Assembly: GCA_963733195.1 (NCBI GenBank)
Contig: CAVTCR010000051.1
Span: forward strand, 1 to 20,759
Reading direction: 5' to 3'
Source: an uncultured delta proteobacterium
Lineage (GTDB): Bacteria > Desulfobacterota > Binatia > Bin18
Length of the DNA stretch: 20,759 nucleotides
Part shown: positions 537-20,759 of the stretch, piece by piece
How positions within the stretch are numbered: position 1 is the stretch's first letter
Layout of the letters: the number at the start of each line of letters is the position of its first letter
Program-made: the position numbers and the translations under genes
The notes under the pieces: model-generated
The model's database searches: none
What the model was told of the DNA's origin: nothing
Seen by the model: only the letters and a program-made list of their open reading frames with translations

Positions 537-1220
537 GTGAAATGGGGAGTAGTCACATTTCCAGGCTCGAACGATGATCATGATGCCCTCTATTGCCTCG
601 AAACTGTTCTCGGCCAACAAGCAGTGAGCTTGTGGCATAAAGATCGCGACCTCAAAGGAGTCGAGGCGATCGTCCTCCCTGGCGGTTTCTCCTATGGCGA
701 TTACTTGCGGTGTGGCGCATTGGCAAGGTTCTCGCCAGTAATGCAAAGTGTGATCGACTTCGCCAACGCAGGCGGTTCAGTCCTTGGTATGTGCAATGGC
801 TTCCAGATTCTCTGTGAGTCTGGGCTGCTGCCTGGCGCACTTGTTCGTAACCGTTCCCTCTCCTTCGTCTGTGAGTGGACGCGGATTCGTGTGGAAACTA
901 CGCGTACCCGCTTTACCGCAGGTTGCACGGTCGGCGAAACCCTGCGCATTCCGATTAAGCATGGCGAGGGTTGTTATGTTGCCGATGAAACCACCCTCAA
1001 AGCATTGGAAGAGAACGGCCAGATTGTCTTTCGCTATGTCAACGAGGCGGGAGATATAACTGATGCCGTCAATCCGAATGGCACGCTTCACAACATTGCC
1101 GGTGTAACAAATGCAAAGGGAAACGTTGTGGGTCTCATGCCTCATCCTGAGCATGCCGTTGAGGCACTGCTCGGCAGTGAGGACGGACGCAAGCTTTTCC
1201 TTTCAGTTCTCACTCGCTAA
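537..1220 (+). CDS. purQ: FGAM synthase glutaminase subunit PurQ
   Basis: GTG start after GAGGAG; motifs FPGSN, PGGFSYGDYLR, GMCNGFQIL (catalytic Cys), GLMPHPE (His-Glu). Confidence 0.97.
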   Translation: MKWGVVTFPGSNDDHDALYCLETVLGQQAVSLWHKDRDLKGVEAIVLPGGFSYGDYLRCGALARFSPVMQSVIDFANAGGSVLGMCNGFQILCESGLLPGALVRNRSLSFVCEWTRIRVETTRTRFTAGCTVGETLRIPIKHGEGCYVADETTLKALEENGQIVFRYVNEAGDITDAVNPNGTLHNIAGVTNAKGNVVGLMPHPEHAVEALLGSEDGRKLFLSVLTR

Positions 1221-1229
1221 GACGCACTC

Positions 1230-3452: not shown

Positions 3453-3455
3453 CTT

Positions 3456-3484
3456 CTGACTTCTGGCAAGGGCTATCATAAAAT
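3456..3484 (+). promoter_or_regulatory. Possible sigma70-type internal promoter for purF
   Basis: CTGACT (3456-3461), 17-nt spacer, TAAAAT (3479-3484) in the 89-bp purL-purF gap; motif match only. Confidence 0.3.
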
Positions 3485-3541
3485 GAACGCAGTACGAGCC
3501 ATAGGCCATTTGCCATAAAGCGAACGGAGAGAGCGAGCCTT

Positions 3542-4996: not shown

Positions 4997-5011
4997 TTTC
5001 AATCAAGTAAG

Positions 5012-5036
5012 AAAACAGGGGTCTACCATCTGTTTT
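5012..5036. terminator. Candidate bidirectional terminator between convergent purF and nadB
   Basis: AAAACAG (5012-5018) / CTGTTTT (5030-5036) inverted repeat in the 43-bp gap; weak, AT-rich stem. Confidence 0.35.
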
Positions 5037-5039
5037 GAT

Positions 5040-6632
5040 TTAAGGTTGTTCGAGTTGCACGACCGTATCATGCCGCCAACTCGTATCATCAGTCTGGGGA
5101 TAATCAAGCGTACAATGCAATCCGCGACTCTCTCGCCGTAGACGTGCGCAACGGATGATCAATTCGGCAACTGTGGCCAAGTTGCGCAGTTCTAGGAGAT
5201 CCCCAGTGACAATGAAGTTCCAGTAGTAGTAGCGAATCTCCTCTTGAATGAGTTCGATGCGGTGCTGAGCACGAGCGAGACGGCGATCGCTACGCACGAT
5301 ACCAACATAGTTCCACATCAAGCGACGAATCTCTTCCCATGTGTGCGTGATCACAACCATCTCATCACTGTTAACCGCTTCTCCTGGGTTCCACACTGGG
5401 AACGTTGGGGCATTGCGCTGGTCGGCGCGTAGCAGAGTATCAGCGTGCAGGAATACACGATGAGCAAAAACGACAGCCTCAAGAAGAGAGTTTGATGCGA
5501 GCCGATTCGCTCCATGCAAACCGGTCATGGCCACCTCACCGGCAGCATAAAGACGAGAAATCGCAGTCGCACCATGCAGATCCGTTACTACGCCCCCGCA
5601 TAGATAGTGCGCGGCGGGAACCACCGGAATCGGCTCTTTGGTCAGATCAATGCCAAATTCTAAGCACCGTTGTGAAATCGAGGGAAACCGTTTGCGTAAA
5701 AAGTCGGCTTCCCGGTGACTGATATCAAGCAGCACGTTCGTAAAACCGTGCGTCTTCATTTCCTGGTCAATCGCACGAGCCACAATGTCACGTGGTGCGA
5801 GTTCTGCGCTGGGATGATACTTCTTCATAAATGGAGCGCCGTCAGGCTGGCGGAGGATTGCCCCTTCCCCACGTAATGCTTCCGAAATTAAAAATGACTT
5901 TGCTCGTGGATGAAACAAACAAGTCGGATGAAATTGGAAAAATTCTAAATTGCCGACTGGCACCCCAGCGCGATACGCCATCGCTAATCCATCGCCGGTC
6001 GCGACATCAGGGTTACTCGTGTACAGATAGACTTTCCCAGCGCCACCGCTGCACAGCACCGTGATTTTCGCGGTCAAAGTTTTCACATCGTTAGTTTCGA
6101 GGTCGAGCACATACGCACCCCAGCATTCTTGCCTGCTCAATTCCTCGGTCGTGAGCAGATCAATAGCGAGATGTTTCTCATAGATGCGGATATTGGGTTG
6201 CTGTCGCACAGCAGCAATGAGTGCGCGAATAATTTCTTGCCCGGTTGCATCTGCAGCATGCAGAATGCGGCGATAGGAATGGCCACCTTCCAAGCCCAGG
6301 TCGTACTCTGCCTCTTCCCCTCCGGGTTTGCGAGAGAAATTGGTCCCTAGTGCGATCAACTCCCGGATACGGTCAGGGCCTTCTGTCACTACCGCCTCAA
6401 CAACATCGCGATGACAGAGTCCGGCTCCGGCGGTTAGCGTATCTTGGATGTGATCGGCGAAGGAATCCTCTTCACTCCAGACAGAAGCGATCCCACCTTG
6501 TGCATACGCAGAGTTACTCTCTGGCAAACGATCCTTGGTGACGATCGTGACGGAACCACGCATCGCCGCTTTCAGAGCCAGGCTGAGCCCCGCGAGTCCG
6601 CTGCCAATAATAAGAAAATCACTGTTACTCAT
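5040..6632 (-). CDS. nadB: L-aspartate oxidase
   Basis: 530 aa; FAD motif IIGSGLAGL, SAYAQGGIA, EGGHS.RRILHA.DATG, QFHPT, LISEALRGEG, ELAPRDIVARAI, HGANRLASNSLLE, ESRGLH. Confidence 0.97.
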   Translation of the reverse strand: MSNSDFLIIGSGLAGLSLALKAAMRGSVTIVTKDRLPESNSAYAQGGIASVWSEEDSFADHIQDTLTAGAGLCHRDVVEAVVTEGPDRIRELIALGTNFSRKPGGEEAEYDLGLEGGHSYRRILHAADATGQEIIRALIAAVRQQPNIRIYEKHLAIDLLTTEELSRQECWGAYVLDLETNDVKTLTAKITVLCSGGAGKVYLYTSNPDVATGDGLAMAYRAGVPVGNLEFFQFHPTCLFHPRAKSFLISEALRGEGAILRQPDGAPFMKKYHPSAELAPRDIVARAIDQEMKTHGFTNVLLDISHREADFLRKRFPSISQRCLEFGIDLTKEPIPVVPAAHYLCGGVVTDLHGATAISRLYAAGEVAMTGLHGANRLASNSLLEAVVFAHRVFLHADTLLRADQRNAPTFPVWNPGEAVNSDEMVVITHTWEEIRRLMWNYVGIVRSDRRLARAQHRIELIQEEIRYYYWNFIVTGDLLELRNLATVAELIIRCARLRRESRGLHCTLDYPQTDDTSWRHDTVVQLEQP

Positions 6633-6736
6633 AACTTCGCTTCATGATAGGCATAGCTGGCATGTCAGAGGGGTCAGAGTCAAGGACGGAGAGGGATTTG
6701 ACCAAACAGGAAAAAATCGTTTATCCTAAAGTTCTC

Positions 6737-7630
6737 ATGTGGAGACATATAGAGAAAGGGGTCGCAAGCCTATTCGGAGTGCTGATAGCTATCGGAACTC
6801 CCATCGTAGGAAGCGATGTCGCTACAGCAGAAATCCGCGTGTATCGCGATAGCAAAGGGGTGTTGTATATCACCAATAAATCCGCACGACCGGTAAAAAA
6901 CGCTGGAACGGCCAAACCGCGCTACAAATGGGGCGCCGATTCGACACGCGGCTCGCGTACAAAGGGCATAGCTCATAAGCAAGACCTGCTTACCAACAAC
7001 TCGCCGGCGTTTGGAGGGCGGATCATCGATGTCCGGAAAGACCTTTCAGACCGCTGGGGAACGAAGCAGTACGTCCACGATTCTCGTACCACTGCACCGA
7101 TTCACGTTTACCGTAATAAACAGGGGTCACTCCAATTTACGAACATTCCCAATCAACCTGGCTATCGTCCATTCTTATTCCTTCAGCCATATATGCGCGG
7201 CATGTCGAGCAAAGAAAGTGCGGACTTTGATCGACTGATTCGTAAGGCATGTATACGCTATGGAGTTGAATTTGAACTGGTCAAGGCTGTTATCAAGGCA
7301 GAATCGGCGTTTAATCCCTGGGCAATTTCTCGCGCCGGAGCACGTGGCTTGATGCAGCTGATGCCCGAGACTGCCGCCGACCACGGGGTTGCCGATATTC
7401 ACTCACCACGTCAGAACATTGAAGGTGGAGTTCGCCACTTACGCCTCCTTTTGGCACGGTTTGAGGGGAACGTCACGTTAGCACTGGCTGCCTATAATGC
7501 CGGCGCCGGTGCGGTAGATAAATACAATGGCATTCCACCGTATCAAGAAACCCAACAATATGTTCGCAAGGTACTCCGTTTTCGTGAGTCGTATCGCGAA
7601 CGAAGCGTCCTCGTGCGCCCACCGGCGTAA
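6737..7630 (+). CDS. Soluble lytic transglycosylase (SLT domain) with signal-like N terminus and two DUF4124-like segments
   Basis: C-terminal VKAVIKAESAFNP, GARGLMQLMP, ALAAYNAG, PPYQETQQYV. ATG 6737 is followed by a hydrophobic stretch ending ATA-E and leaves room for divergent promoters; the ORF track start is 6644, so the start is uncertain. Confidence 0.88.
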   Translation: MWRHIEKGVASLFGVLIAIGTPIVGSDVATAEIRVYRDSKGVLYITNKSARPVKNAGTAKPRYKWGADSTRGSRTKGIAHKQDLLTNNSPAFGGRIIDVRKDLSDRWGTKQYVHDSRTTAPIHVYRNKQGSLQFTNIPNQPGYRPFLFLQPYMRGMSSKESADFDRLIRKACIRYGVEFELVKAVIKAESAFNPWAISRAGARGLMQLMPETAADHGVADIHSPRQNIEGGVRHLRLLLARFEGNVTLALAAYNAGAGAVDKYNGIPPYQETQQYVRKVLRFRESYRERSVLVRPPA

Positions 7631-7662
7631 CCGAGAACCGCGCGCACCTCAGGACTCCACTG

Positions 7663-8271
7663 GTGGCGACCCTGCCTAACCTGTTGAGTTTATTTCGGAT
7701 CGCGTTGATTCCGATCCTTGTCTATTTTTTGACTGACCCAGGCAAACAATCCGGCATCTTCGCGGCCATCACCTTCTTTATCGCGAGCCTCACGGACTTC
7801 TTCGACGGGTACTTAGCCCGACGCCAAGGGTCGACCACAACCCTTGGTAAGTTTCTTGATCCTCTTGCCGATAAGCTGCTTGTTACCGCGGCACTCATCA
7901 TGTTGGCTGCCATTGACCGTACGCCCCGAGTACCAGCCACACTAGTTGTTCTGCTCGTCGCAAGAGAGTTCGCGGTCACCGGCCTCCGCGCCATCGCTTC
8001 TGGTGAGGGGCTCATTCTAGCGGCAGAAGAATTAGGAAAGTATAAAATGCTTTCTCAGATATTTGCGGTACACGGATTACTACTTCACTATCAATATGGC
8101 TTCATCGACTTCTATATTTTTGGCATGTATTTTTTATGGATCGCGTTAGTTCTCAGCCTCTGGTCAGGGATAGATTATCATCTCAAAGTTTTCCACCAAG
8201 TGAGGGCTAAGCATTCCCTTCCCACCTCCTCTGTTGTCCCCCCTCCCAATCAGGCAGAAGTACGCGGATAG
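7663..8271 (+). CDS. pgsA: CDP-diacylglycerol--glycerol-3-phosphate 3-phosphatidyltransferase
   Basis: LPNLLSLFRI start and CDP-alcohol phosphatidyltransferase motif TDFFDGYLARR...GKFLDPLADK; REFAVTGLR, GKYKM. Confidence 0.95.
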   Translation: MATLPNLLSLFRIALIPILVYFLTDPGKQSGIFAAITFFIASLTDFFDGYLARRQGSTTTLGKFLDPLADKLLVTAALIMLAAIDRTPRVPATLVVLLVAREFAVTGLRAIASGEGLILAAEELGKYKMLSQIFAVHGLLLHYQYGFIDFYIFGMYFLWIALVLSLWSGIDYHLKVFHQVRAKHSLPTSSVVPPPNQAEVRG

Positions 8272-8301
8272 TCGGTGTCGTTACTCACGAAGGAGCGCAA
8301 C

Positions 8302-9309
8302 ATGCATGTTCTTGTCACCGGAGCCGCAGGTTTTATCGGTTTTTACGTCACCCAGCGCCTTCTAGCACGCGGGGATACTGTGGTGGGAATAGACAACCTT
8401 AACGCCTACTACGACGTTCGTCTGAAACACGATCGCCTCGCCCGACTACAAGAGCACCCGAGTTTTCACTTTCAACAACTAGATTTAGCCGATCACCCAA
8501 GCATGGCCACTCTCTTCTCCAGCCACCGCCCAGAACGTGTCGTGCATCTCGCTGCCCAAGCCGGAGTACGGTACTCACTGACCAACCCTCATTCCTATGT
8601 CGAAAGTAATCTCGTCGGCTTCATAAACATTCTCGAAGGATGTCGCCATAACCAAGTCCAGCACCTCGTGTACGCATCCAGCAGTTCGGTTTACGGAGCG
8701 AATACAAAGATGCCCTTTTCCGTGCATGATAACGTTGACCATCCAGTGTCGTTGTATGCGGCCTCGAAGAAGGCCAATGAGTTAATGGCCCATACGTACA
8801 GTCACCTCTACCAGTTGCCGACGACCGGCCTGCGGTTCTTCACCGTCTACGGTCCGTGGGGGCGACCAGACATGGCGTTGTTTCTTTTCACCAAGGCGAT
8901 TTTGAACGGTCAACCGATTGAGGTCTTCAATCAGGGCAAGATGCGACGGGACTTTACGTATATTGATGACATCGTCGAGGGTGTTGTACGGGTGACCGAT
9001 ACCATCCCGAAATCCAACCCAGCGTGGTCTAGTATGAGACCTGATCCCGGCACCAGCAAGGCACCGTATCGGATCTACAACATCGGCAATAACCAGCCGG
9101 TTGAGCTACTAGAATTCATTCGCGTATTAGAAAACTGCCTCGAACGAAAAGCGGAAAAACGCCTGCTGCCCATGCAGCCGGGGGACGTACCAGAAACCTA
9201 TGCTGATGTGGACGATTTAATGCGCGACGTTGGCTTCCGACCGGCAACTCCGATCACCGTAGGCATTGCCCGCTTTGTTGAGTGGTATCGGTCCTATTAC
9301 AAAGTGTGA
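8302..9309 (+). CDS. NAD-dependent epimerase, UDP-glucuronate 4-epimerase-like (CapI/LpsL type)
   Basis: ATG 8302 follows AAGGAG (8290-8295); [55 protein letters not shown]. Confidence 0.93.
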
Positions 9310-9654: not shown

Positions 9655-9882
9655 ATGAGAACAATAGAAACGACAGCAATAGTAACGCACGACGGCAAAA
9701 TGACTATACCCTACCCTCGGATATTCCACCAGGAGAGCATCAGGTCGTCATGGTCATTGAGGAGCAAGCTTCCGCAAAAGGTGATCGCCCACCTTTGGAC
9801 TTACCTGTCCGAGATTATGGCCCGTGGCCTGAAGAATCTCTCCCTCAGCCGTGAGGATATGTATGATGAATGGGGACGCTAA
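9655..9882 (+). CDS. Small putative antitoxin upstream of PIN toxin; middle part apparently out of frame through two compensating indels
   Basis: 75 codons overlapping the PIN gene start. The -1 frame from about 9711 to 9833 reads LPSDIPPGEHQVVMVIEEQASAKGDRPPLDLPVRDYGPWPE, which joins plausibly to MRTIETTAIVTHDGKMTI and NLSLSREDMYDEWGR. Antitoxin role is inferred from size, position and the REDMY-type tail. Confidence 0.7.
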   Translation: MRTIETTAIVTHDGKMTIPYPRIFHQESIRSSWSLRSKLPQKVIAHLWTYLSEIMARGLKNLSLSREDMYDEWGR

Positions 9883-10408
9883 GAAAATCTTTCTGGACAC
9901 GAATGTACTTGTGTTTTCCAAGGCGGTTCGGGCTCCCCTCCATGAAATTGCCCGGCAAGCGATCGAGGAACAATATGCTGCTGGAGCGGAGGTATGGGTC
10001 AGCCGGCAGGTGTTGCGAGAATATCTGGCTACTCTCAGTCGTCCGCAAACTTTCAGCAATCCGCAGCCTCCAGATATTCTGGTCGCGGATGTTCGTTACT
10101 TTAAAAGTCATTTCTTTATTGCTGAGGATACCTCTCAGGTAACAGAACGGCTTCTCGATCTGATTCAGCGAGTTCCTATCGGTGGCAAACAAATCCACGA
10201 TGCCAACATCGTGGCGACAATGCTCACCTACGACATTCCCACCTTGCTCACCAACAACACCGACGACTTCAAGCGTTTCTCCCACCTCATCACCGTGCTG
10301 CCGTTGGACGCTGTTTTCTCGTCATCCTCTGAGGAATCCAGTTTCTGCTTCTCCAAGATCTCTTCGCGGAGTTTATCCTGCCTGCGCCAGTGCCGCAGGC
10401 ACAGGTGA
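9863..10408 (+). CDS. PIN-domain (VapC-like) ribonuclease toxin
   Basis: IFLDTNVLV, QVLREY, IHDANIVATML, LLTNNTDDF carry the conserved acidic PIN residues; ATG at 9863 or 9866 after GAGGA. The last ~30 codons run through a REP-like region. Confidence 0.9.
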   Translation: MMNGDAKKIFLDTNVLVFSKAVRAPLHEIARQAIEEQYAAGAEVWVSRQVLREYLATLSRPQTFSNPQPPDILVADVRYFKSHFFIAEDTSQVTERLLDLIQRVPIGGKQIHDANIVATMLTYDIPTLLTNNTDDFKRFSHLITVLPLDAVFSSSSEESSFCFSKISSRSLSCLRQCRRHR

Positions 10409-10434
10409 GCGGAGTCGAAGGACTGCTCAGAAAC
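10321..10434. repeat. Nested REP-like palindromic element
   Basis: Outer GTTTCTG (10341-10347) / CAGAAAC (10428-10434); inner hairpin TGCCTGCG (10379-10386) / CGCAGGCA (10394-10401) interrupting GAGTTTATCC|TGAGCGGAGTCGAAGGAC. Confidence 0.55.
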
Positions 10435-10493
10435 AAAATTTTCGACCTGTATCGGACACTCGTCCCGGTAGAACCTGGGACAAGTGGCAGCTC

Positions 10494-10534
10494 GTCATTC
10501 CGGGCAAGGCTGCAGGCCGCGACCCGGAATCCAG
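10494..10534. repeat. REP-like palindrome GTCATTCCGGG...CCCGGAATCCAG
   Basis: ATTCCGGG (10497-10504) / CCCGGAAT (10523-10530) inverted repeat with GTC and CCAG ends, as in GTCATTCC..GGAATCC-type REPs. Confidence 0.7.
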
Positions 10535-10719
10535 GAGCATCCGGTTTCTGCTGTCATGCTCTTCGGTTTAAGGTTCACCTCACACGGGCTCCTCATCAAT
10601 TTGCGGATCGCTCACCACAAGTGTTAAAGTGGGCATTGGGGAAACGTACACCGAGTTGCACAGCCAGAGAGATCAACCTCTTCCATTCACCTCATCAGCA
10701 ACTCTCTTCTGCGCAGCTC

Positions 10720-10738
10720 TGTGAGCGTCACGCTCACA
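10720..10738. promoter_or_regulatory. Perfect 19-bp palindrome, candidate operator upstream of cas3
   Basis: TGTGAGCGT-C-ACGCTCACA, 138 bp upstream of the cas3 ATG; function is inference. Confidence 0.4.
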
Positions 10739-10876
10739 ACGAGTAGACGTCTTGGACAGAAGGACCTAGGTGCCCAGCGTCGAATTTCGACCGCGAGGCA
10801 CTCTCACGGCCAATCGGCGGAGCTTTGCCCACGAAAAACACCCTGAGGCAGAAACGAACGTATTTAAGGAATTGCT

Positions 10877-13361
10877 ATGGTTATTGCTCACCAACGGAAG
10901 CATGACAAAGCCACACAAAGTCTTGAAGAGCATTTGTTCGGCGTTGCGAGCGAAGCTAAATCATTCGCCACAAAAATTCATTTGGAGGAACAAGGGGAGC
11001 TGATCGGATTGCTGCACGACTTGGGTAAGTACAGCAAGGAGTTTCAAAATTACATCCGATCTGCAGTCGGCCTGCTGAATCCAGACGAGGATGAGGAGTT
11101 CGTCGAGGCGAAGGAACTCAAAGGTAAAGTAGACCACTCAACCGCAGGTGCCCAACTTGTTTGGGAGGCGTTGTCCAAACAAGGTCAAATAGGACAAGTC
11201 GCAGGACAGATCCTCGCCTTATGTATTGCGTCCCATCATTCTGGCCTGATCGATTGCTTATCCTCAAATGCCAAAGGGCTTGGCGAAGATATTTTTACTA
11301 AGCGAATGCTGAAGCTCGATGAGCGGACGCACCTTCAGGAAGCTGTGGTAAACATGGACGCGCGGATCACTGCGCGGTTTCGCGAACTTACGAACAATCC
11401 AGCCCTGCTTGATGGTCTAAAAAATTCAATCGGCCAAGTTATGCGGGGTGACTTGGAATTGATTAAAACAGCCTCAGACCGAAATGCGGTAACACAGTTC
11501 AAGATCGGGTTATTGGTGCGGTTGTTATTCAGTTGTTTGATCGACGCAGACCGTATCAATACTGCCGACTTTGAGAACCCCGAAGCTGCGGCACAGCGAC
11601 CGAAGGGGAAGTACTCGGAATGGGACCTGTTAATCGATCGCCTAGAAAAGGATCTGCAAGGAAAGAGTATCGTACATCCGATAGACGAAATCCGGCGCCG
11701 CATTTCGGATCAGTGCTTTAAAAGTGCCTCTCGAAGCAAAGGTATCTATACCCTGACGGTTCCAACTGGTGGTGGCAAGACACTCGCGAGTCTGCGCTTT
11801 GCGCTGCATCACGCGAAAGCACACGGTATGGATCGAGTGATTTACGCTATTCCTTTTACTTCTATCATCGACCAAAACGCCGATGTCGTGCGAAAAATCC
11901 TTGAGCCAGCAGGTGTAGTGTCAGGGAGCGTGGTGCTTGAACACCACTCGAATCTAACCCCAGAAGAACAGACATGGAAAAGTAAAATTCTATCCGAAAA
12001 CTGGGACGCTCCAGTTGTGTACACCACGAATGTGCAGCTTCTGGAGACACTCTTTGGTGCCGGCACTCGTGGTGCACGGCGAATGCACCAATTAGCCAAT
12101 GCCGTCCTGGTCTTTGATGAAATCCAGACATTACCACTCAATTGTATCCATTTGTTCTGCAATGCAATCAATTTTTTGGTTGAGCACTGCGGCAGTACGG
12201 TCCTGCTCTGTACGGCGACACAACCCTTACTGAATCGTGTAGAACCATCGAAGGGTGCACTACGCATAACTGCTGAAAGTGAACTCATGCCGGACGTCAC
12301 AAGGCTTTTCGCCGATCTAAAGCGTGTTGAGGTACTCAATCGGAGAAAGCCAGGTGGTTGGAGCAACGAAGAGATTGCTCGTCTCGCCCTAGAAGAAGTC
12401 GACCAACACAAGAGTTGTCTGGTGATTGTGAATACTAAACGATCGGCTCGGGAGATTTTCCAGCTCTGCCGCAACGAAACAGACATCCCAATTTACCACT
12501 TGAGCACGAGTATGTGTGCTGCGCATCGGAGAAAGGTGCTCAGTGACATTCGCAATCATCTTGATCACAAGGAGCACATTTTGTGTATCAGTACCCAGCT
12601 TATCGAAGCGGGAGTCGATATCGATTTTGGCTCGGTCATTCGCTTTCTCGCAGGCCTAGACTCTATCGCGCAAGCGGCTGGGCGGTGCAATCGCAACGGA
12701 CGTTCACAGTTGGGTCGAGTGCACGTTATCAACCCAAGCGACGAAAGCGTTGAGAGGCTTACAGACATAAGCAGCGGCAAGAACACCACAGCACGACTCC
12801 TTGAAGAGTATGAGAAGCACGCCACCATGTTTGTGAATGATCTCGTCGGACCTGAGGCAATGGAGTGGTATTTCCATTACTACTTTTTCGATCGACGCAA
12901 AGACATGGACTATCCAGTTTCGGCTGGAACGCTGGGACATAACGACACTTTGCTCAACTTGCTCTCCGTCAATCCCCACGCAAGCGGAAGAATTTCGTCG
13001 TTGCCACAGTAAGCTTCCGAATTTGTATCTTCGTCAATCTTTTATGTCTGCGGCTAAAGCATTTAAGTCAATCGATGCGCCGACGAGAGGTGTGATTGTT
13101 CCATATGGCGAGAGTGGCAAGGCAATCATCAATGACCTGTGCTCTGCATTTATGGTTGAAAAACAATGGAAGCTTTTACGAAAAGCGCAGCAATACACGG
13201 TCAATGTGTTTTCGGATGATCTGCGGCGTCTTCGGGAAGTCTACGCCGTGCTTCCAGTCCAGGAAGATACAGACATCCTTTATCTCGATGCTCGCTATTA
13301 TAGCCCAGAGTTTGGCTTGAGCCTGACACCTGTCGGGGAAATGGAGATGTTGCATGTCTGA
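10877..13361 (+). CDS. cas3: CRISPR-associated HD nuclease/helicase Cas3, split by one +1 frameshift near 12974-12983
   Basis: HD domain (EEHL, LLHDLGK, DHS, SHHSGL, SCLIDADR); helicase motifs VPTGGGKT, DEIQ, CTATQP, STQLIEAGVDIDF, QAAGRCNR. ORF stops at 13012 but the C-terminal domain (LRQSFMSAAKAFKSID..VIVPY..LRKAQQYTVNVF..YYSPEFGL) continues in the next frame to 13361. Confidence 0.93.
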
Positions 13362-14076
13362 GTTGACTCGCAGCAATATCGAATTCCGTGTGTGGGGGCG
13401 ATTCGCTCTCTTCTCCGATCCTTTAACCAAGATCGGTGGAGAAAAGTGTTCCTATCACATCCCCACTTACGAAGCACTCAAAGGCATCACCAAATCTATT
13501 TATTGGAAACCCACACTCATCTGGGTCATTGACGAGGTGCGCATCATGAAGCGCATCCGTACGCAGACGAAAGGTACAAAACCGTTGGAGTACGGTGGCG
13601 GGAATACATTAGCCATCTACACTTTTCTGGCAGATGTCGAATATCAGGTGAAGGCACACTTTGAATGGAATCTGCACCGTCCAGAACTCGCGGATGACCG
13701 TAATGAGGCAAAGCATCACATCATTGCCCAACGCATGCTAGAGCGCGGTGGACGGCAGGATATTTTCCTCGGCACTCGTGATTGCCAGGGATATGTCGAA
13801 CCCTGTGTATTTGGCTCTGAGCAAAGTTATCACAACAATTCAGGAGAACTTGCGTTCGGCGTAATGTTTCACGGGTTTGATTACCCTGATGAAATAGGGG
13901 AAGCCAAGCTGCACGCACGCTTTTGGCGACCAACGATGGTCGATGGTGTGATTCGTTTCGTACGACCGGAAGACTGTACGATCAGAAAGTTCATTCGAGA
14001 GATGGGTGTAAAGAAATTCGAGAAAGACCGGAACTTCCGGTACGCGGAACTGGAAGTGAACGAACTGGAAGGTTGA
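13354..14076 (+). CDS. cas5: Type I-C Cas5 (Cas5c/Cas5d), pre-crRNA processing endoribonuclease
   Basis: FRVWGRFALFSDP..KIGGEKCSYHIPTYEALKG..IYWKP, DVEYQVKAHF, IFLGTRDC; overlaps the cas3 end; no cas6 in the operon. Confidence 0.96.
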   Translation: MSELTRSNIEFRVWGRFALFSDPLTKIGGEKCSYHIPTYEALKGITKSIYWKPTLIWVIDEVRIMKRIRTQTKGTKPLEYGGGNTLAIYTFLADVEYQVKAHFEWNLHRPELADDRNEAKHHIIAQRMLERGGRQDIFLGTRDCQGYVEPCVFGSEQSYHNNSGELAFGVMFHGFDYPDEIGEAKLHARFWRPTMVDGVIRFVRPEDCTIRKFIREMGVKKFEKDRNFRYAELEVNELEG

Positions 14077-14077
14077 T

Positions 14078-15973
14078 ATGGGCTGGATGCAAAAACTTTA
14101 CGAGACGTACGAACAAGGTGCAGGCAATCTACAGTTTGCCCAAGAAAGCAAACCGTTGTTACCCATCAGTCATGTAACACAACAAGCACATATCGAGATC
14201 ACTATAGATGAGGAAGGAAATTTTCGTCGGGCAACGGTTATTCCCAAAGTGGAAACAATTCTACCAGCAACAGAAAAGTCGGCTGGTCGTTCCAGTGGCG
14301 AAGCGCCGCATCCCCTATGTGACAAAATTCATTACTGCGCAGCCGATTATCCTATGTACGGTGGCCAAAAGCCTCATTACTACCCTGGCTATGCTGAACA
14401 GTTATCCCAATGGAATATGTCCACGTTCTCTCATCAGAAAGCCCGGGCTGTCCTCAACTATGTCAGGAAAGGAACGATAGTTGCTGACCTTGTGCGCGAG
14501 AAAATCTTACACGTTGGGCAAAATGGAAAATTGCTCACATCCTGGGAATCCGATGCTCCTGAGCCAGACATCTTCAAGTACCTCACGCCGAAAAAAGAAG
14601 CAGGGGTAGCTGTTCGTGATCAAGGGGATGCCTTAGTGCGCTGGCGTGTTGAAATACTCCACGATCCTCTATCCGCAACGTGGGAGGATCAAGACCTTAT
14701 GCGCGCGTGGGTGAGCTACTATGCAAGTCGGAAAGCGAATCCTGGACTTTGCTTAGTCACCGGGGAAGACATGATGCTAGCAGATCAGCATCCTGCCAGA
14801 CTCCGACACGGTGGAGATAAAGCAAAGTTAATTTCCTCGAATGACACCAGTGGCTTTACCTTTCGTGGTCGCTTTGTCGACGCTGACCAAGCCTGTGGTG
14901 TCGGATTTGATGTCACACAAAAAGCTCATAATGCCCTGCGTTGGTTGATCGGACGGCAAGCATATCAAAACGGTGATCAGGCAATTGTCGCATGGGCGGT
15001 ATCGGGAAAATCGATTCCTGACCCGTTTGCAAATTCTCACGAACTGTTTGACATTGAGATTGACCAGCCTGAAGGAGCCTCTCAAGTACAAGGAGATGTA
15101 GGCCAAGCGTTTGGCAAGAGATTAGCGAAGTTGATAGCAGGCTACCGCGCAGACCTTGGTTCAACCAACGAAATCGTCGTCATGAGCTTGGATTCCGCCA
15201 CTCCAGGCCGAATGGCAATGACCTTCTACCGCGAATTGACGGGGTCCGAGTTTCTTGAACGCGTCCAGTCTTGGCACGAGAACGTTGTCTGGCATCAACA
15301 CTATTCCAAAGACTTACGGTTTATCGGGGCCCCGTCTCCCAAGGACATCGCGGAAGCAGCTTTTGGCCATCGGCTGGACGACAAACTTCGTAAGGCAACA
15401 GTGGAGCGTTTACTTCCTTGCATCATCGATGGACAAACAATTCCCCGTGACCTGGTGGAATCGGCTATACGTCGCTCATGCAACCGAGCAAGTCTGGAGC
15501 ACTGGGAGTGGGAAAAGAATCTTGGCATCTCCTGCGCCCTGTTCCGCGGGTACCACAAGCAAAGGAGTTATCACATGGCATTAGAATCCAATCGAACCAC
15601 CCGCGATTACCTTTATGGACGCCTGTTGGCAATTGCGGAGCATATTGAAAACCGCGCACTGTACGTCGCCGGGGAAAAGCGGGAGACGAGTGCTACCAGG
15701 CTCATGCAACGGTTTGCCGATCGACCGTACTCAACCTGGAGAACTATCGAGCTTTCGCTCACTCCCTACAAATCACGCCTGCGCACGAAGCGTTCTTCAT
15801 TTTTGAATGAAATGGAAAAGCAAATTGATGCAGTGGTTGGCGCATTTCAAGCGCAAGACTTTACCGACGAAAAGCGGCTTTCTGGAGAGTTTCTGCTGGG
15901 ATATCACTGCCAGAGACAAGTACTGTGGAACAAGCCAGAACCAGACACTGATGAGGACGATAACGATAACTAA
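14078..15973 (+). CDS. cas8c: Type I-C Cascade large subunit Cas8c (Csd1)
   Basis: 631 aa; MGWMQKLYETYE, APHPLCDK, CLVTG, AKLISSND, ATPGRMA, YLYGRLLA, FLLGYHCQR; position between cas5 and cas7. Confidence 0.96.
   Translation: MGWMQKLYETYEQGAGNLQFAQESKPLLPISHVTQQAHIEITIDEEGNFRRATVIPKVETILPATEKSAGRSSGEAPHPLCDKIHYCAADYPMYGGQKPHYYPGYAEQLSQWNMSTFSHQKARAVLNYVRKGTIVADLVREKILHVGQNGKLLTSWESDAPEPDIFKYLTPKKEAGVAVRDQGDALVRWRVEILHDPLSATWEDQDLMRAWVSYYASRKANPGLCLVTGEDMMLADQHPARLRHGGDKAKLISSNDTSGFTFRGRFVDADQACGVGFDVTQKAHNALRWLIGRQAYQNGDQAIVAWAVSGKSIPDPFANSHELFDIEIDQPEGASQVQGDVGQAFGKRLAKLIAGYRADLGSTNEIVVMSLDSATPGRMAMTFYRELTGSEFLERVQSWHENVVWHQHYSKDLRFIGAPSPKDIAEAAFGHRLDDKLRKATVERLLPCIIDGQTIPRDLVESAIRRSCNRASLEHWEWEKNLGISCALFRGYHKQRSYHMALESNRTTRDYLYGRLLAIAEHIENRALYVAGEKRETSATRLMQRFADRPYSTWRTIELSLTPYKSRLRTKRSSFLNEMEKQIDAVVGAFQAQDFTDEKRLSGEFLLGYHCQRQVLWNKPEPDTDEDDNDN
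15575..15973 (+). CDS. cas11: Cas11c small subunit from an internal in-frame start within cas8c
   Basis: AAAGGAG (15561-15567), 7 nt, then in-frame ATG 15575 giving 132 aa MALESNRTTRDYLYGRLLAIAE...; internal translation of Cas11 from cas8c is established for type I-C. Confidence 0.85.
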   Translation: MALESNRTTRDYLYGRLLAIAEHIENRALYVAGEKRETSATRLMQRFADRPYSTWRTIELSLTPYKSRLRTKRSSFLNEMEKQIDAVVGAFQAQDFTDEKRLSGEFLLGYHCQRQVLWNKPEPDTDEDDNDN

Positions 15974-15991
15974 CCTGATGAAGGAGCAACG

Positions 15992-16840
15992 ATGCCAACA
16001 TTACAACAGAAGATCGACTTCGCCATTATTCTACGTGTGAAGAATGCCAACCCAAACGGTGACCCGCTCAACGGGAACCGACCCCGCACGGATTATGAGG
16101 GGCTCGGCGAAATCACCGATGTCTGTATTAAGCGGAAAATCAGAGACCGCCTGCTAGAAAAGGGTACGGCAATTTTTGTGCAGTCAGACGACCGGAGGGT
16201 AGATGGCGCCAAAAGCCTACGAGCAAGAGCCGAAGCTACTCTTGGCAATAAGTTGGGGTCCATCGATACCGCAAAACTGGCGTGTGAAAAATGGTTCGAT
16301 GTACGAGCCTTCGGTCAGCTTTTCGCATTTAAGGCCGACAAGAAAGGGAAGAAAAAGGAAGAGGGGGATGATGGAGATACCGGTGTTTCCATTGGTATAC
16401 GTGGACCTGTCTCTGTGCAATCTGCCTTCAGCGTGGAACCTGTCAGTGTTACGAGCACTCAGATTACCAAAAGTGTCAGTGGTGAAGGAGATGGGACAAA
16501 GCGCAGTTCAGATACCATGGGCATGAAGCATCGTGTGGATCGTGGTGTGTATGCCTTTTTCGGTAGCATGAACCCACAGTTGGCAGAAAGAACAGGATTT
16601 AGCGACGCAGATGCAGAAGCCATCAAGCAAATATTGCCACGGTTGTTCGAAAATGATGCTTCGTCTGCCAGACCGGAAGGAAGCATGGAAGTGAGCAAAG
16701 TCTTCTGGTGGCAGCACAATTGTAAAGCAGGACAGTATTCCTCCGCCAAGGTTCATCGCACCTTGTCCGTTAAACCTGACGGAAGCTATGAGCTGGCTAA
16801 CCTCAGTGGCCTTGTCCCCGAAGAAATCAATGGTTTTTGA
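15992..16840 (+). CDS. cas7: Type I-C Cascade backbone Cas7 (Csd2)
   Basis: NANPNGDPLNGNRPR, TDVCIKRKIR, DVRAFG, IRGPVS, TMGMKH, FENDASSARPEG; AAGGAG ribosome-binding site. Confidence 0.97.
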   Translation: MPTLQQKIDFAIILRVKNANPNGDPLNGNRPRTDYEGLGEITDVCIKRKIRDRLLEKGTAIFVQSDDRRVDGAKSLRARAEATLGNKLGSIDTAKLACEKWFDVRAFGQLFAFKADKKGKKKEEGDDGDTGVSIGIRGPVSVQSAFSVEPVSVTSTQITKSVSGEGDGTKRSSDTMGMKHRVDRGVYAFFGSMNPQLAERTGFSDADAEAIKQILPRLFENDASSARPEGSMEVSKVFWWQHNCKAGQYSSAKVHRTLSVKPDGSYELANLSGLVPEEINGF

Positions 16841-16878
16841 GAGACGCCCTATTACTCACTCGGAAAGAGGGTGAACTC

Positions 16879-17508
16879 GTGATTGATAGAGACAATGACG
16901 ATCCCATTATGCTCTCCGCCCTGGAGCACTACAGCTACTGTCCACGGCAGTGTGCGTTGATTCATGTGGAGCAATCCTTTGACGAGAACGTCTTACACGC
17001 TGCGGGGCGCGCGGTGCATGAACAAGTCGATCAACCGGAATGGGTTGTTGAGAAAGGCGTGCGTGTCGAACGGGCCTTGCCGCTATGGTCCCATCGCCTC
17101 GGATTGGTCGGCAAAGCCGATGTCGTCGAGTTCCACGGTGATACCCCCTACCCGGTCGAATACAAACATGGCCCGCGCCGACAAAAGGAACACGATGATC
17201 TCCAACTCTGTGCACAAGCGCTCTGTCTGGAAGAAATGACTGGTCAAGCCGTGCCGAAAGGTGCGATCTTCCATCACAGCTCGCGTCGTCGACGAGAGGT
17301 CGAGTTCACGCCAGCCTTGCGTGAGAAAGTTGAACAGACGGCGAACCAAATTCGGCTCATGCTCGCCGAGCGCACGCTGCCGCCAGCAGTCAATGACGCC
17401 CGCTGTAAGCACTGTTCGTTACAGGATTCGTGTTTGCCGTCGGTTACGAATGAGAAAAAGCGGCTGCAACGTCTTGCCAGTGAGTTGTTCACAGTTGTAG
17501 AGACGTAG
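16879..17508 (+). CDS. cas4: Cas4 exonuclease
   Basis: GTG after GAGGG; SALEHYSYCPRQCALIH, GKADVVEF, PVEYKHG, QLCAQALCLEEM, CKHCSLQDSC (four Fe-S cysteines). Likely compensating indel pair at about 16993-17007 (neighbouring frame reads YTLRG). Confidence 0.95.
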   Translation: MIDRDNDDPIMLSALEHYSYCPRQCALIHVEQSFDENVLHAAGRAVHEQVDQPEWVVEKGVRVERALPLWSHRLGLVGKADVVEFHGDTPYPVEYKHGPRRQKEHDDLQLCAQALCLEEMTGQAVPKGAIFHHSSRRRREVEFTPALREKVEQTANQIRLMLAERTLPPAVNDARCKHCSLQDSCLPSVTNEKKRLQRLASELFTVVET

Positions 17509-17532
17509 CATGCTGACATCAAATAGGACACG

Positions 17533-17612
17533 TGGATTCCCGCCGAAAGCGCTAGTCTAGACACTGCAACCAGCGCCGTAGGCACAGGGAGCGCAGCCAA
17601 CGCGGGAATGAC
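17533..17612. repeat. REP-like element TGGATTCCCGC...GCGGGAATGAC with enlarged internal segment
   Basis: ATTCCCGC (17536-17543) / GCGGGAAT (17602-17609) inverted repeat separated by 58 bp, in the cas4-cas1 gap. Confidence 0.65.
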
Positions 17613-17656
17613 GAAATTGAGCCGACTCAAATAAATGTGGAGAATGCTGAGGCCTT

Positions 17657-18686
17657 ATGCACCAACTCTCAATACCCTCTATGTCACTACCCCGGAAGCC
17701 TATGTTCGCCTCGATCACGAGACATTACGCGTCCAGGTGGAGAGGGAAACGAAACTCCAGGTGCCACTCCACCATCTCGGTGCTCTCGTGTGTTTTGGCG
17801 ATGTGCTGATCAGTCCAGCCTTGTTCCACCGCTGCGCCGATGATGGGCGATCTGTAGTGTTGTTAGATCGCAATGGCCGGTTCAAGGGACGACTCGAAGG
17901 ACCAGTGTCCGGAAACGTCCTGTTACGCAAAGCGCAGCACGAAGCGGTCAATTCACCACAGCAAACGCTCGCCATTGCCCGTAACATGGTTGCCGGAAAA
18001 ATGCAGAATGTTCGACAAATCGTTCTGCGTGCGGCGCGTGAAACGGATGACACCGACGATGCAACCCATCTTAAAGAGACGGTCAAACGTTAGCAATCGC
18101 ACTGGAACGTACCGCTACTGCCGAGGATCTCGATCAATTGCGTGGGTTCGAGGGCGAGGCTGCGCGGCAGTACTTCAGCACGTTTACCTGCATGGTACGA
18201 GAGGATCGGGAAACCTTTCAGCTCAACGGACGCAATCGCCGCCCTCCCCGCGATCGGATCAATGCCTTGTTGTCTTTCTTGTATGCACTACTGCTGGGCG
18301 ATTGTGTTTCAGCAGCAGAAGGAGTTGGGCTTGATCCACAGATGGGCTTTCTGCACGCGCTCCGGCCGGGACGACCAGCCCTTGGGCTCGATCTCATGGA
18401 GGAATTGCGCTCGGTCATCGCTGAGCGGCTTGCGCTGACGCTGATCAATCGTCGCCAGATCAATGCCGCACATTTTGTCGATCGTCCTGGTGGCGCGGTC
18501 TATTTGGGCGATGAAGGCCGCAAAGAAGTGATTGTCGCCTATCAGAAGCGCAAACAAGAGGAAATCCAACATCCGGTGTTAGAACAAAAAATGCCGATCG
18601 GCCTCATTCCGCACGTCCAGGCACGCCTATTGGCGCGGGTGTTGCGTGGGGACATGGAAACATATCTACCCTATTTCTATCGATAA
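17657..18686 (+). CDS. cas1: Type I-C Cas1 integrase, interrupted by apparent -1 frameshifts near 17667 and 18090
   Basis: ATG 17657 after GAGG gives MHQL, then LNTLYVTT in the adjacent frame; GPVSGNVLLRKAQ; after CGTTAG (18088-18093) the other frame reads LAIALERTATAEDLDQLRGFEGEAA..RNRRPPRDRINALLSFLY..GFLH..DLMEELR. Alternative in-frame starts exist at 17635/17644. Confidence 0.92.
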
Positions 18687-18697
18687 GAGGAGATGCG

Positions 18698-18987
18698 ATG
18701 CAGGTCTTAGTGGCCTATGACGTAGCGACTGAAAAAGACGATGGCAAAAGACGCCTGCGCAAAGTCGCCCAGGTATGTAAGAACTTCGGCCAGCGTGTAC
18801 AGAAATCGGTCTTCGAGTGCCTGGTCGATCAAGCGCAGTACGAACAACTGATTCGCGACCTCGTCAAATGCATTGATGAAAAGGAGGATAACTTACGTGT
18901 GTATCGTTTGCGAGAACCCAAAGAGCAGTTCTGTCGCCACTTTGGCGTCAACCATCAGTGAACTTTGATGACCCGTTGCTCGTATAG
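18698..18987 (+). CDS. cas2: Cas2, with an apparent -1 frameshift near 18950
   Basis: MQVLVAYDV..GKRRLRKVAQVCKNFGQRVQKSVFEC..DNLRVY; ORF stops at 18961, but adding one A at 18950 gives the type I-C-like tail FGVKPSVNFDDPLLV ending TAG 18985-18987. Confidence 0.92.
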
Positions 18988-19093
18988 TATCTAAACTCTG
19001 ACAAGGATAAAGATTGGAACAAACGATGACCTGGTAGCAATCTGATAGTCACGTGAGTAGCGCCCACCCTTTGAGTTGGGTAAAAGGTAAAAC
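18984..19093 (+). CRISPR. Degenerate mini-array (pseudo-repeat, 36-nt spacer, pseudo-repeat); candidate crRNA-like RNA
   Basis: R1 18984-19020 ATAGTATCTAAACTCTGACAAGGATAAAGATTGGAAC; spacer 19021-19056; R2 19057-19093 GTAGCGCCCACCCTTTGAGTTGGGTAAAAGGTAAAAC; both align end to end with the 38-nt array repeat. Confidence 0.72.
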
Positions 19094-19119
19094 AACCGGC
19101 AAGAGAAAAAGAAGCGATT

Positions 19120-19325
19120 ATGCGATACAAAATTGTCCTGCAGAAATCTGAAGAAGGCTACAGTGTGTCTTGCCCGGGTTGCCTGGTTGTTGGTCGCAGG
19201 GGGCCACTGAAACAGAAGCGATGGAAAATATTCAAGATGCCATTCGAGAGTATCTCGCTGCTGTTAATGACTTACTCCAAGAGACGCCCGAGGCCGAGGT
19301 GCGAGAAGTGGATGTCGTGGTATAG
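19120..19325 (+). CDS. hicB: HicB-family antitoxin (short form), apparent -1 frameshift near 19176-19180
   Basis: MRYKIVLQKSEEGYSVSCPG then, one base shifted, LPGCWSQGATETEAMENIQDAIREYL...EVDVVV-stop: the HicB signature P.LPGC.SQG.T..EA..NI.DAI..YL. Confidence 0.88.
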
Positions 19326-19326
19326 C

Positions 19327-19526
19327 CTGCCGAAGCTGAGTATCAACGTAAACGCTGTCGGTTCTGGGAAGGTAATTCGATTGTACGACAAGGAAAACAC
19401 ATAGTGATGTCAGACGGTATGTGTATTCTCACTATCCCACGACACAATCCGATCAATGCCATTACGATGGAAGGAATCGTACGGGATGCAGGGTTAAGTC
19501 TGGAAGAATTTCGCGAGCTGCTCTGA
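19327..19526 (+). pseudogene. hicA: HicA-family toxin with damaged 5' end
   Basis: 19380-19526 reads IVRQGKHIVMSDGMCILTIPRHNPINAITMEGIVRDAGLSLEEFRELL-stop (RQG.H, IPRH, I.RDAGL motifs); upstream residues PKL..IN..NAV are in another frame and there is no canonical start codon. Confidence 0.8.
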
Positions 19527-19736
19527 CAGCCCCGTTTGGCGACAGGAGGACAGGCGTCGCGCGAACCTAGAGCGACAGCACAAACCCAGGGAGGATCGCG
19601 TTGGCTCTAAGATACTTATTTTTAACAACTTTCTCGTTCCGCGATTTCGAGGCTTGTCCGCTTTTGTCCTTCGACAATTCGGATCGCGCAAAAGAGAGAA
19701 AAACCCCAGACCTCACAAGGGTTTGGGAGGTCGGCG
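19527..19736 (+). promoter_or_regulatory. CRISPR leader
   Basis: Non-coding 210 bp before the first repeat, with an AT-rich patch (about 19608-19635), GCGCGAACC near 19559 and GGATCGCG twice (about 19593 and 19681), resembling type I-C leader motifs. Confidence 0.75.
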
Positions 19737-20759
19737 GTAGCACCCAACCTCACTGGTTGGGTGAGGATTGAAACAGAGATGAGGCTTGCCCCTATGTTCC
19801 GGGACACGCGTAGCACCCAACCTCACTGGTTGGGTGAGGATTGAAACGTCACGCTACATTGACATTGACGTGGTAAAGGAGTAGCACCCAACCTCACTGG
19901 TTGGGTGAGGATTGAAACAAGCTGTAATGTAAGAAATGTGTAACGGAAATTCGTGTAGCACCCAACCTCACTGGTTGGGTGAGGATTGAAACAGCGCCTA
20001 GCCGCGAAGGGCGGAGCGAAGCCTGTTGGTAGCACCCAACCTCACTGGTTGGGTGAGGATTGAAACCGTTGTCCCGTATCAGGTCGGGGCGCTAGACCGT
20101 GTAGCACCCAACCTCACTGGTTGGGTGAGGATTGAAACGACCATAAGGACTTATGGGCGCTGATGAATAAGGCGGTAGCACCCAACCTCACTGGTTGGGT
20201 GAGGATTGAAACCTTTGATAATAGTGCCGAAGCCGCCAAGAGCGATTGCCGTAGCACCCAACCTCACTGGTTGGGTGAGGATTGAAACTTCCACACGGTT
20301 TTGCCGTTGCTCTGTCGCGTCAGTAGCACCCAACCTCACTGGTTGGGTGAGGATTGAAACATTAGCTCACACTACAAGCGTACAGCTTGAGGCTGTAGCA
20401 CCCAACCTCACTGGTTGGGTGAGGATTGAAAACTTTACCCGGCCCCTCCTGCTAGCGCCGATCTTAGTAGCACCCAACCTCACTGGTTGGGTGAGGATTG
20501 AAACCCATAGAGCCGCGAACGTCGCTAAGCGCTTTTGTAGCACCCAACCTCACTGGTTGGGTGAGGATTGAAACTTTACCGACGGGCGCAGGCAAAAGCC
20601 TGTGTCTTGGTAGCACCCAACCTCACTGGTTGGGTGAGGATTGAAACTTCATAATATGTTCTCCTTAATCGCTCGCCCTGGCTTGTAGCACCCAACCTCA
20701 CTGGTTGGGTGAGGATTGAAACTTGTTCGCCAGTGAGTTCTGACACGGCATCACACCGT
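19737..20759 (+). CRISPR. Type I-C CRISPR array, 14 complete repeats, truncated by the window end
   Basis: Repeat GTAGCACCCAACCTCACTGGTTGGGTGAGGATTGAAAC (38 nt; stem CACCCAACC/GGTTGGGTG, 11-nt 3' tail) starting at 19737, 19810, 19881, 19955, 20029, 20101, 20175, 20251, 20323, 20395, 20467, 20537, 20610, 20685; 13 complete unique spacers of 32-38 nt; repeat 10 has one extra A; final GT may begin repeat 15. Confidence 0.99.

Follow-up and report, generated by a model that had tools for sequence, protein, structure and literature searches.

The DNA analyzed here is a stretch of 20,759 nucleotides (nt) of contig CAVTCR010000051.1 (assembly GCA_963733195.1) from an uncultured delta proteobacterium of the Binatia, and this whole stretch is referred to below as the window. 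It carries a type I-C CRISPR locus, in which a repeat-spacer-repeat unit and a short hicB-hicA toxin-antitoxin cassette (hicBA) are situated between cas2 and the CRISPR leader. An earlier note on this DNA had proposed that a mini-array and hicBA, lying at this place on one strand, form a CRISPR-coupled toxin-antitoxin module. All the elements it named were indeed found there on the plus strand, in the order cas2, pseudo-repeat R1, spacer-like stretch, pseudo-repeat R2, hicB, hicA remnant, leader and array (Table 1). An intact relative, the Binatia metagenome-assembled genome L001, was used as the reference for mapping lesions in the genes of the window; it was the best relative found, with 88% identity in the C-terminal part of Cas1.

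Table 1. Features of the window around the hicBA cassette and in the type I-C locus
Feature	Position	Strand	Support
Pseudo-repeat R1	18984..19020	+	24/37 to best family repeat; last 11 nt (19010-19020) resemble the 5' handle of CRISPR RNA (crRNA)
Spacer-like stretch, 36 nt	19021..19056	+	Length inside the spacer range of the array
Pseudo-repeat R2	19057..19093	+	27/37 to repeats of L004, L025, L013
hicB 5' untranslated stretch, 26 nt	19094..19119	+	Aligns with the L001 stretch from cas2 stop to hicB ATG
hicB pseudogene (short-form antitoxin), 1-nt deletion near 19175/19176	19120..19325	+	DNA and protein alignment to L001
hicA pseudogene (toxin), start codon lost and further indels in first third	19326..19526	+	L001 alignment
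CRISPR leader, ~210 nt	19527..19736	+	Homology to leaders of L001, L002, L007
CRISPR array, 14 repeats of 38 nt, runs to window end	19737..20722	+	Repeat family D1
cas3 (HD nuclease-helicase), frameshifted	10877..13361	+	Pfam Cas3_HD, DEAD, Cas3-like_C_2
cas5c, intact	13354..14076	+	Pfam Cas_Cas5d E 7e-44; single full-length L001 match, 92% identity
cas8c (Csd1), intact	14078..15973	+	Pfam Cas_Csd1 E 1.7e-128; residues 1-627 of 639-residue L001 protein, 71% identity
cas7c (Csd2), intact	15992..16840	+	Pfam Cas_Cas7 E 5e-71; full-length L001 match, 90% identity
cas4, intact	16837..17508	+	Pfam Cas_Cas4; single L001 match, 86% identity
cas1, frameshift near 18081-18090	17635..18686	+	Open reading frames (ORFs) 17635-18093, 18138-18686
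cas2, 1-nt deletion near 18951/18952	18698..18987	+	Pfam CRISPR_Cas2; alignments with L001, L002, L007

To assess the repeat-like sequences, a set of 49 distinct repeats was taken from 56 related loci, and all 37-mers that lie outside the array were scored against it. On the forward strand, R2 and R1 gave the two highest scores of the whole window; the next one was 23, and the maximum on the reverse strand was 24. R1 and R2 were identical to each other at 20 of 37 positions, which was reached by none of 5000 shuffles, and the probability of an 11-nt handle with two or fewer mismatches occurring 30-40 nt before R2 was approximately 0.0014. Judged by these scores, the repeat-spacer-repeat unit is more than a chance likeness.

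The two pseudo-repeats are worn differently. R1 begins on the stop codon of the ancestral cas2 frame; what has been kept of it is mainly the 3'-terminal 11 nt, and these match the handle of the array of the window at 9 of 11 positions and the GGAAC variant found in the arrays of L037, L047, L053, and L061 at 10 of 11. In the arrays of these four loci and of L075, the repeat ends in GGAAC instead of GAAAC, and the end of R1 shows the same variant. R2 is uneven, with 21 of 24 positions matched in its 5' part and 6 of 13 in its 3' part, and it is shaped like the terminal repeats of the relatives, in which the 5' part is kept and the last ~3-17 nt are lost. The folding energy of R1 was -2.3 kcal/mol (z +0.28), showing no stable hairpin 5' of the handle, and that of R2 was -7.0 kcal/mol (z -0.16), corresponding to a weak hairpin; the true array repeat folded at -17.1 kcal/mol (z -3.3). 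Since R1 lacks a stable hairpin and the hairpin of R2 is only weak, the cleavage of these pseudo-repeats by Cas5c, which had been suggested as one possible basis of the coupling, is doubtful. The spacer-like stretch holds the first six bases of the repeat (19033-19038); this could be chance, or what is left from an earlier reshuffling of pieces of the repeat. Ectopic integration of a spacer at a pseudo-repeat was considered as a possible origin of the unit, in view of the likeness of R1 and R2.

As for the cassette itself, hicB begins with an ATG at 19120; the gap between R2 and hicB is 26 nt and not 27 bp as had been noted. In L001, hicB and hicA are intact and encode proteins of 68 and 70 amino acids (aa), which match Pfam HicB_lk_antitox with 36.9 bits and HicA_toxin with 34.1 bits (cut-off 27). 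When the L001 HicB was aligned with the window, residues 1-20 were found in frame 1 and residues 19-57 in frame 3, so that the reading frame is interrupted; the second piece passes the cut-off of 27 for HicB_lk_antitox (PF15919) with 27.9 bits. The purine-rich stretch that stands just before the hicB ATG in L001 is altered in the window. The hicA remnant aligns only with residues 20-70 of the L001 HicA (86% identity), and its score for HicA_toxin (PF07927), 17.1 bits, is below the cut-off of 27. Compared with L001, it has lost the A of its ATG and bears several further deletions, including multi-base ones, which two alignments place differently; the first start codon in the frame of its C-terminal part is GTG 19404. 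The damage to hicA that had been suspected was thus confirmed by comparison with L001, and hicB proved to be frameshifted as well. The multi-base deletions in hicA, as aligned, argue for real decay over sequencing error, and the toxin-antitoxin module of the window is, as far as can be read from its genes, dead. Because hicB, hicA, cas1, cas2, and cas3 are all broken, an addiction or abortive response from this copy, as once envisaged, is impossible.

The description of HicB as a short form without a DNA-binding domain was borne out: the intact 68-aa orthologue matches the Pfam HicB model at positions 1-56 of 123 and no further, and it lacks a ribbon-helix-helix (RHH) or helix-turn-helix domain at its C-terminus. 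In addition, a scan for terminators detected one weak terminator-like site, located inside hicB (1.2 expected by chance), and none between cas2 and hicB, and no sigma-70-like promoter was found in a scan of 18500-19800; this agrees with the earlier impression that there is no obvious terminator.

The cassette belongs to a very common family, with 6310 matches for HicB and 5768 for HicA; among the 120 matches listed for each, most HicB proteins are 68 aa and most HicA proteins 70 aa long. Such abundance fits a promiscuous cassette. A predicted N-terminal extension of at least 5 residues ahead of the conserved HicB start was present in 53 of 360 stored homologues. In three of the 53 (P0001, P0006, and P0007), the extension starts with MRIET or MRIEI, which is the translation of the last 14 nt of the repeat in its only stop-free frame; spurious ORFs running across the array of the window give the same type of reading. 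These three proteins are among the four HicB matches closest to the window (94-96% identical) of the matches listed. Counted from the HicB methionine, their repeat-end peptide is 8 or 6 codons upstream, and this is the position of R2. According to the back-translation score, P0001, P0006, and P0007 reached 14, 14, and 13 of 14, while the other 50 extensions scored 7-12, the best of them being P0266 (LGIET).

The repeat end ahead of hicB was read in P0001, P0006, and P0007 solely from the protein N-termini, and all three are singletons on contigs of 904-1032 nt. A cluster look-up of seven HicB homologues returned only singletons on short contigs and no further context, and a tblastn search of plasmids with the intact HicB gave only relatives of less than 60% identity with no usable context. 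Since the three close homologues start with a translated repeat end at the R2 position, the predicted order of repeat and then hicB reflects inheritance within the closest lineage, and R2 appears as a worn version of a canonical type I-C repeat end. Five other homologues (P0244, P0114, P0246, P0250, and P0119) share a conserved translated upstream stretch ending in ...QPEKGSV or ...PKKGSV; the peptide before the ...KGSV stretch of P0244 resembles a translated repeat hairpin, which is suggestive, but its score is within noise.

The conservation of the arrangement was assessed in 80 related loci fetched with the C-terminal part of Cas1, of which 68 hold cas2 and a downstream array. In 64 of these 68 the gap between cas2 and the array is 142-217 nt and corresponds to the leader alone. 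Longer gaps were found in L001 (684 nt, containing hicBA), L043, L073, and L077; L043 and L077 have no pseudo-repeat ahead of the leader, and the extra length in L073 consists of two variant first repeats of the array itself. A pseudo-repeat unit ahead of the leader was found in none of the 68 comparable relatives, and hicBA of this kind between cas2 and the leader was found among them in L001 only. There, only a short untranslated stretch separates the cas2 stop from the hicB ATG, and the intact hicBA occupies the same site without pseudo-repeats. The earlier note had itself named the independent occurrence of hicBA and the mini-array in relatives as a refutation of the coupling; L001 shows that hicBA does occur without the unit. 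A segment of 92 nt of the window (18988-19079) has no counterpart in L001, which may reflect either a deletion in L001 or an insertion in the window. A distant hicB of L019 is located elsewhere and has no repeat upstream. Two Nitrospira relatives, L008 (~11025-11130) and L029 (~11025-11125), carry a single spacer at the normal array position after a normal leader; in these minimal arrays the lone spacer lies between a canonical repeat and a degenerate repeat.

A search for targets of the spacer-like stretch found none. Comparison of the spacer region (19012-19062) with the rest of the window revealed no shared exact word of 11 nt or longer, only 9- and 10-mers expected by chance. At sites of the window flanked by a TTN protospacer adjacent motif (PAM), the best seed score was 10/15, which is the mode of the maxima for 200 shuffled spacers, and spacer start offsets 19017-19027 gave no match with a usable PAM across the window. 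In the best seed run of the window, the first 13 nt of the spacer match 16054-16066, inside cas7c, and all but positions 6 and 12 agree; only 23 of 2000 shuffles did as well. However, the PAM of this site is CCC, and its codons belong to a conserved Cas7 motif. This seed match recurs at the equivalent place in the cas7 of L001, and similar ones are present somewhere in L016 and L075. The cas7c match was treated as chance.

Outside the window, the spacer region had only two 21-nt matches in phages (E = 3, chance level), the whole R1-spacer-R2 unit had no match in plasmids, and comparison of the spacer with the 80 related loci gave nothing beyond chance, only its repeat-like ends matching arrays. 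R2 was also considered as a solitary repeat unit for which the untranslated stretch of hicB would serve as the guide; this candidate was rejected, no target being found. The test for a promoter-type target within the window, defined as a seed-anchored partial match with the PAM of the subtype, thus failed, and the suggestion that a guide represses a toxin or cas promoter finds no TTN-PAM target above shuffles there. As for a CreTA-type guide, the window contains neither an exact word of at least 11 nt nor a PAM-flanked seed match above chance, and no dedicated search for a creT-like gene was made.

Taken together, the window is best read as holding a decayed short-form hicBA cassette (HicB 68 aa, HicA 70 aa) lodged between cas2 and the type I-C leader, after the remnant of a one-spacer array; we give this reading a probability of roughly 0.55. 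A promiscuous hicBA cassette would have lodged at the cas2/leader junction of a type I-C locus, and the array remnant ahead of hicB would consist of one repeat reduced to its 3' end, a spacer of 36 nt, and a second repeat degenerated at its 3' end. Given the lack of a terminator and the very limited space for a promoter, the intact ancestors probably carried hicBA on one transcript with cas2 and the small upstream array. Any precursor crRNA (pre-crRNA) from this small array would have been cut by Cas5c in the same way as ordinary array RNA. The arrangement would then represent a neighbourhood of genes sharing a transcript and not a CreTA-like circuit of a guide and its target, of which there is no sign. 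In its present state, the arrangement in the window is a non-functional relic. Of the module proposed earlier, the physical linkage of repeat and hicB is supported by the N-termini of P0001, P0006, and P0007; functional coupling, i.e., CRISPR control of the toxin, is unsupported.

The general idea of such a coupling is already published in three forms, namely, mini-arrays with cargo toxin-antitoxin genes (PMC10120712), type I-C crRNA-like RNAs (crlRNAs; 10.1101/2024.12.27.630466), and HicAB-Cas13a (PMC13448076). Shmakov et al. (2023, PMC10120712) reported mini-arrays in 7% of 1206 type I-C loci. For type I-D, they described cargo toxin-antitoxin genes located downstream of mini-arrays, with spacer targets in the cargo promoters, and addiction and anti-anti-CRISPR roles were proposed for these genes. 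The unit in the window is similar in that two repeat-like sequences surround an insert of spacer length in a type I locus and toxin-antitoxin genes follow directly downstream. The published mini-arrays, in contrast, recur in related loci as conserved elements, and their spacers match a cargo or cas promoter partially, over at least 10 bp and with a PAM. Moreover, the cargo of the type I-D cases lies upstream of cas10d, whereas the unit considered here lies between cas2 and the leader.

The type I-C solitary repeat units and crlRNAs described by Shu et al. (2024, 10.1101/2024.12.27.630466) control defence genes termed 'CRISIS' and possess an 11-nt handle with a hairpin just 5' of it. They match a site in the cargo promoter flanked by TTC or TTA; in Nezha, the match is 16 bp long, with a TTC PAM and one mismatch at position 6. 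A further preprint deals with crlRNAs of phages (10.1101/2024.10.29.618823). The window resembles these systems in its subtype, in the 11-nt segment similar to a 5' handle (9/11), and in cargo inside the cas locus. Unlike crlRNA units, which are located between the cargo and cas5c, its unit stands ahead of the cargo and after cas2, and has neither the hairpin nor a target in the window. With the haloarchaeal type I-B CreTA (Li et al. 2021, as presented in PMC10120712), it shares a degenerate two-repeat unit in the cas locus and the better conservation of the repeat parts that enter the mature RNA. However, CreT is a small RNA toxin whose promoter is targeted by CreA, whereas the window has a protein toxin-antitoxin pair with a dead toxin gene, and no target was found.

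In the CCTA system (Chen et al. 2026, PMC13448076), hicA and hicB likewise lie directly beside CRISPR repeats; in the window, a repeat is located just upstream of hicB and the array downstream of hicA. CCTA is a type VI-A system with the order hicA-CRISPR-hicB-cas13a, whereas the order in this type I-C locus is unit, hicB, hicA, leader, and array. In addition, the CCTA HicB has a C-terminal RHH domain, and the HicB considered here is a 68-aa short form. The intact orthologues also resemble chromosomal HicAB type II cassettes: they match Pfam HicB_lk_antitox and HicA_toxin, weakly resemble the N-domain seen in known structures of HicB (2dsy, 6hpb, 6g1c, and 4p78) and the HicA-like 1whz, and have thousands of near-identical 68-aa and 70-aa homologues. 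Unlike ordinary chromosomal HicAB, hicB precedes hicA, a DNA-binding domain is absent, and in this lineage the cassette lies inside a CRISPR locus just after a repeat. The locus thus shares the anatomy of known systems and fails the functional hallmarks that were tested: a PAM-flanked target, a 5' hairpin, conservation in genome relatives, and intact genes.

Several observations weigh against reading the unit as a mere remnant beside a lodged cassette. The parts that a crRNA would retain (the last 11 nt of R1 and the first 26 nt of R2) match the family majority consensus at 28 of 37 positions versus 15 of 37 for the discarded parts (Fisher p 0.004). The spacing between repeat and hicB that is kept in three close homologues could mean function and not inheritance, and a full array, a mini-array, or cas2 may lie upstream of these homologues. 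Finally, the single-base frameshifts, judged from the assembly, might be assembly errors. The asymmetry between retained and discarded parts would be expected from selection on a working crRNA-like RNA, but equally from a truncated repeat followed by a terminal repeat. It is considered unlikely that the unit encodes such a working regulator, comparable to CreA, CreR, or the type I-C crlRNAs, which, loaded into the intact Cascade (Cas5c, Cas8c, and Cas7c), would repress a promoter; its target would either be situated outside the window or, prior to the decay of the locus, have been the promoter of hicBA or of cas genes. Besides the asymmetry, such a regulator would fit a locus in which the Cascade genes are intact and cas3, cas1, and cas2 are broken, and it has documented precedents in type I-C crlRNAs that repress cargo defence genes (10.1101/2024.12.27.630466) and in type I-D mini-arrays upstream of cargo toxin-antitoxin genes (PMC10120712). 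The seed run in cas7c could be taken as its target, but the CCC motif, the conserved codons, and the recurrence in L001 speak against this. The TTN-PAM search, the absence of the unit from all 68 genome relatives, and the retention of hicBA by L001 without it are also unfavorable, and R1 has no hairpin directly 5' of its handle, unlike crlRNAs processed by Cas5c (10.1101/2024.12.27.630466). If, on the other hand, the frameshifts were errors of assembly or sequencing, the locus, including hicB, cas1, cas2, and cas3, would be intact in the organism. Four lesions are indeed single-base indels; however, the loss of the hicA start together with several separate deletions, some of them multi-base, makes an atypical error pattern, R2 and the purine-rich stretch before the hicB ATG are degenerate too, and seven housekeeping ORFs of the same window (537-9309) are unsplit and have Pfam matches, as judged from ORF calls and a Pfam scan. 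Such an explanation is very unlikely.

The remaining alternative concerns the relatives of this locus and not the window, which would be a dead copy. Intact relatives could represent a type I-C counterpart of the HicAB-Cas13a CCTA, with direct interaction of the array RNA and HicAB: cleavage by Cas5c at the last repeat would set the 5' end of the hicBA mRNA, or the repeat RNA would bind HicA or be cut by it. This is in keeping with three close homologues in which a canonical repeat end precedes the start of HicB by 6-8 codons, and with an array that follows hicA after the leader; in the published hicA-CRISPR-hicB-cas13a loci, crRNA neutralises HicA and HicA processes pre-crRNA (PMC13448076). 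Such a counterpart nevertheless seems improbable. No Cas13a is present in the window and the gene order is different, HicB lacks the C-terminal RHH domain of the CCTA HicB, the L001 cassette has no repeat, and a repeat end occurs in only 3 of the 53 visible N-terminal extensions. Much the same doubt attaches to the idea that in intact relatives short-form hicBA is wired into type I-C array transcripts, with a canonical repeat ~25 nt before hicB, and that the window is a fossil of a type I counterpart of CCTA. In such a wired arrangement, Cas5c cleavage and Cascade assembly on the 11-nt handle would define the 5' end of the hicBA mRNA and could cover the ribosome-binding site; alternatively, the repeat RNA might act on HicA as in the Cas13a CCTA. 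The output of the toxin-antitoxin pair would then report the state of the CRISPR machinery.

Should the repeat-hicB junction prove to work in intact relatives, a type I system would join type VI-A in having CRISPR and HicAB directly integrated, and bacteria would possess a protein toxin-antitoxin counterpart to CreTA. In its decayed form, the window indicates that a common toxin-antitoxin cassette can lodge at the cas2/leader junction. It also indicates that the Cascade genes can stay open in an island whose adaptation genes, interference nuclease, and toxin-antitoxin genes decay together, which is ordinary turnover of a defence island.

As for the remainder of the locus, the type I-C genes follow the order cas3-cas5c-cas8c-cas7c-cas4-cas1-cas2 (10877-18987) according to the Pfam analysis, and the type I-C gene set (Cas3_HD, Cas_Cas5d, Cas_Csd1, Cas_Cas7, Cas_Cas4, Cas_Cas1, and CRISPR_Cas2) is present together with the adjoining array. 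The interference and adaptation gene set is not intact, however: cas3, cas1, and cas2 are frameshifted relative to L001, whereas cas5c, cas8c, cas7c, and cas4 are uninterrupted. The L001 Cas3 (842 aa) aligns with frame 2 of the window up to ~12985 and then with frame 3 from 12975, placing an extra base near 12984. The two ORF pieces of cas1 correspond to Pfam Cas1 positions 1-129 and 151-283, and the alignment of the L001 Cas1 starts in frame 1 and continues in frame 3. The cas2 ORF as read ends at 18961; the ancestral stop is the TAG at 18985-18987, which overlaps the start of R1. The coding state in which only Cascade is left represents either recent decay or assembly error.

The leader is homologous from ~19555 onwards to the L001 leader and to the leaders of L002 and L007, which stand directly after cas2. 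In the array, the spacers are 32-38 nt long, and 13 of the 14 repeats are identical, the one at 20395-20432 ending in A and not in C. An Rfam scan of the whole window gave no family at gathering score.

Upstream of the type I-C locus, the genes at 537-9309 are housekeeping ones (purine synthesis, an FAD-dependent oxidoreductase on the minus strand, an SLT transglycosylase, a CDP-alcohol transferase, and an epimerase); their seven ORFs have Pfam domain matches and none is split. They are followed by a PIN-domain gene and then by cas3. Between the PIN gene and cas3 (10182-10746), two overlapping ORFs of 129 and 118 aa have no Pfam match, and the stretch between 10409 and the start of cas3 at 10877 carries no assignment. 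The PIN ORF is long (185 aa) and is preceded by a small gene, and the two (9655-10408) are likely a VapBC-type pair. In L001, a homologue of the small gene likewise lies upstream of cas3 (490-717); the copy in the window bears two indels, by which its frame is shifted and then restored.

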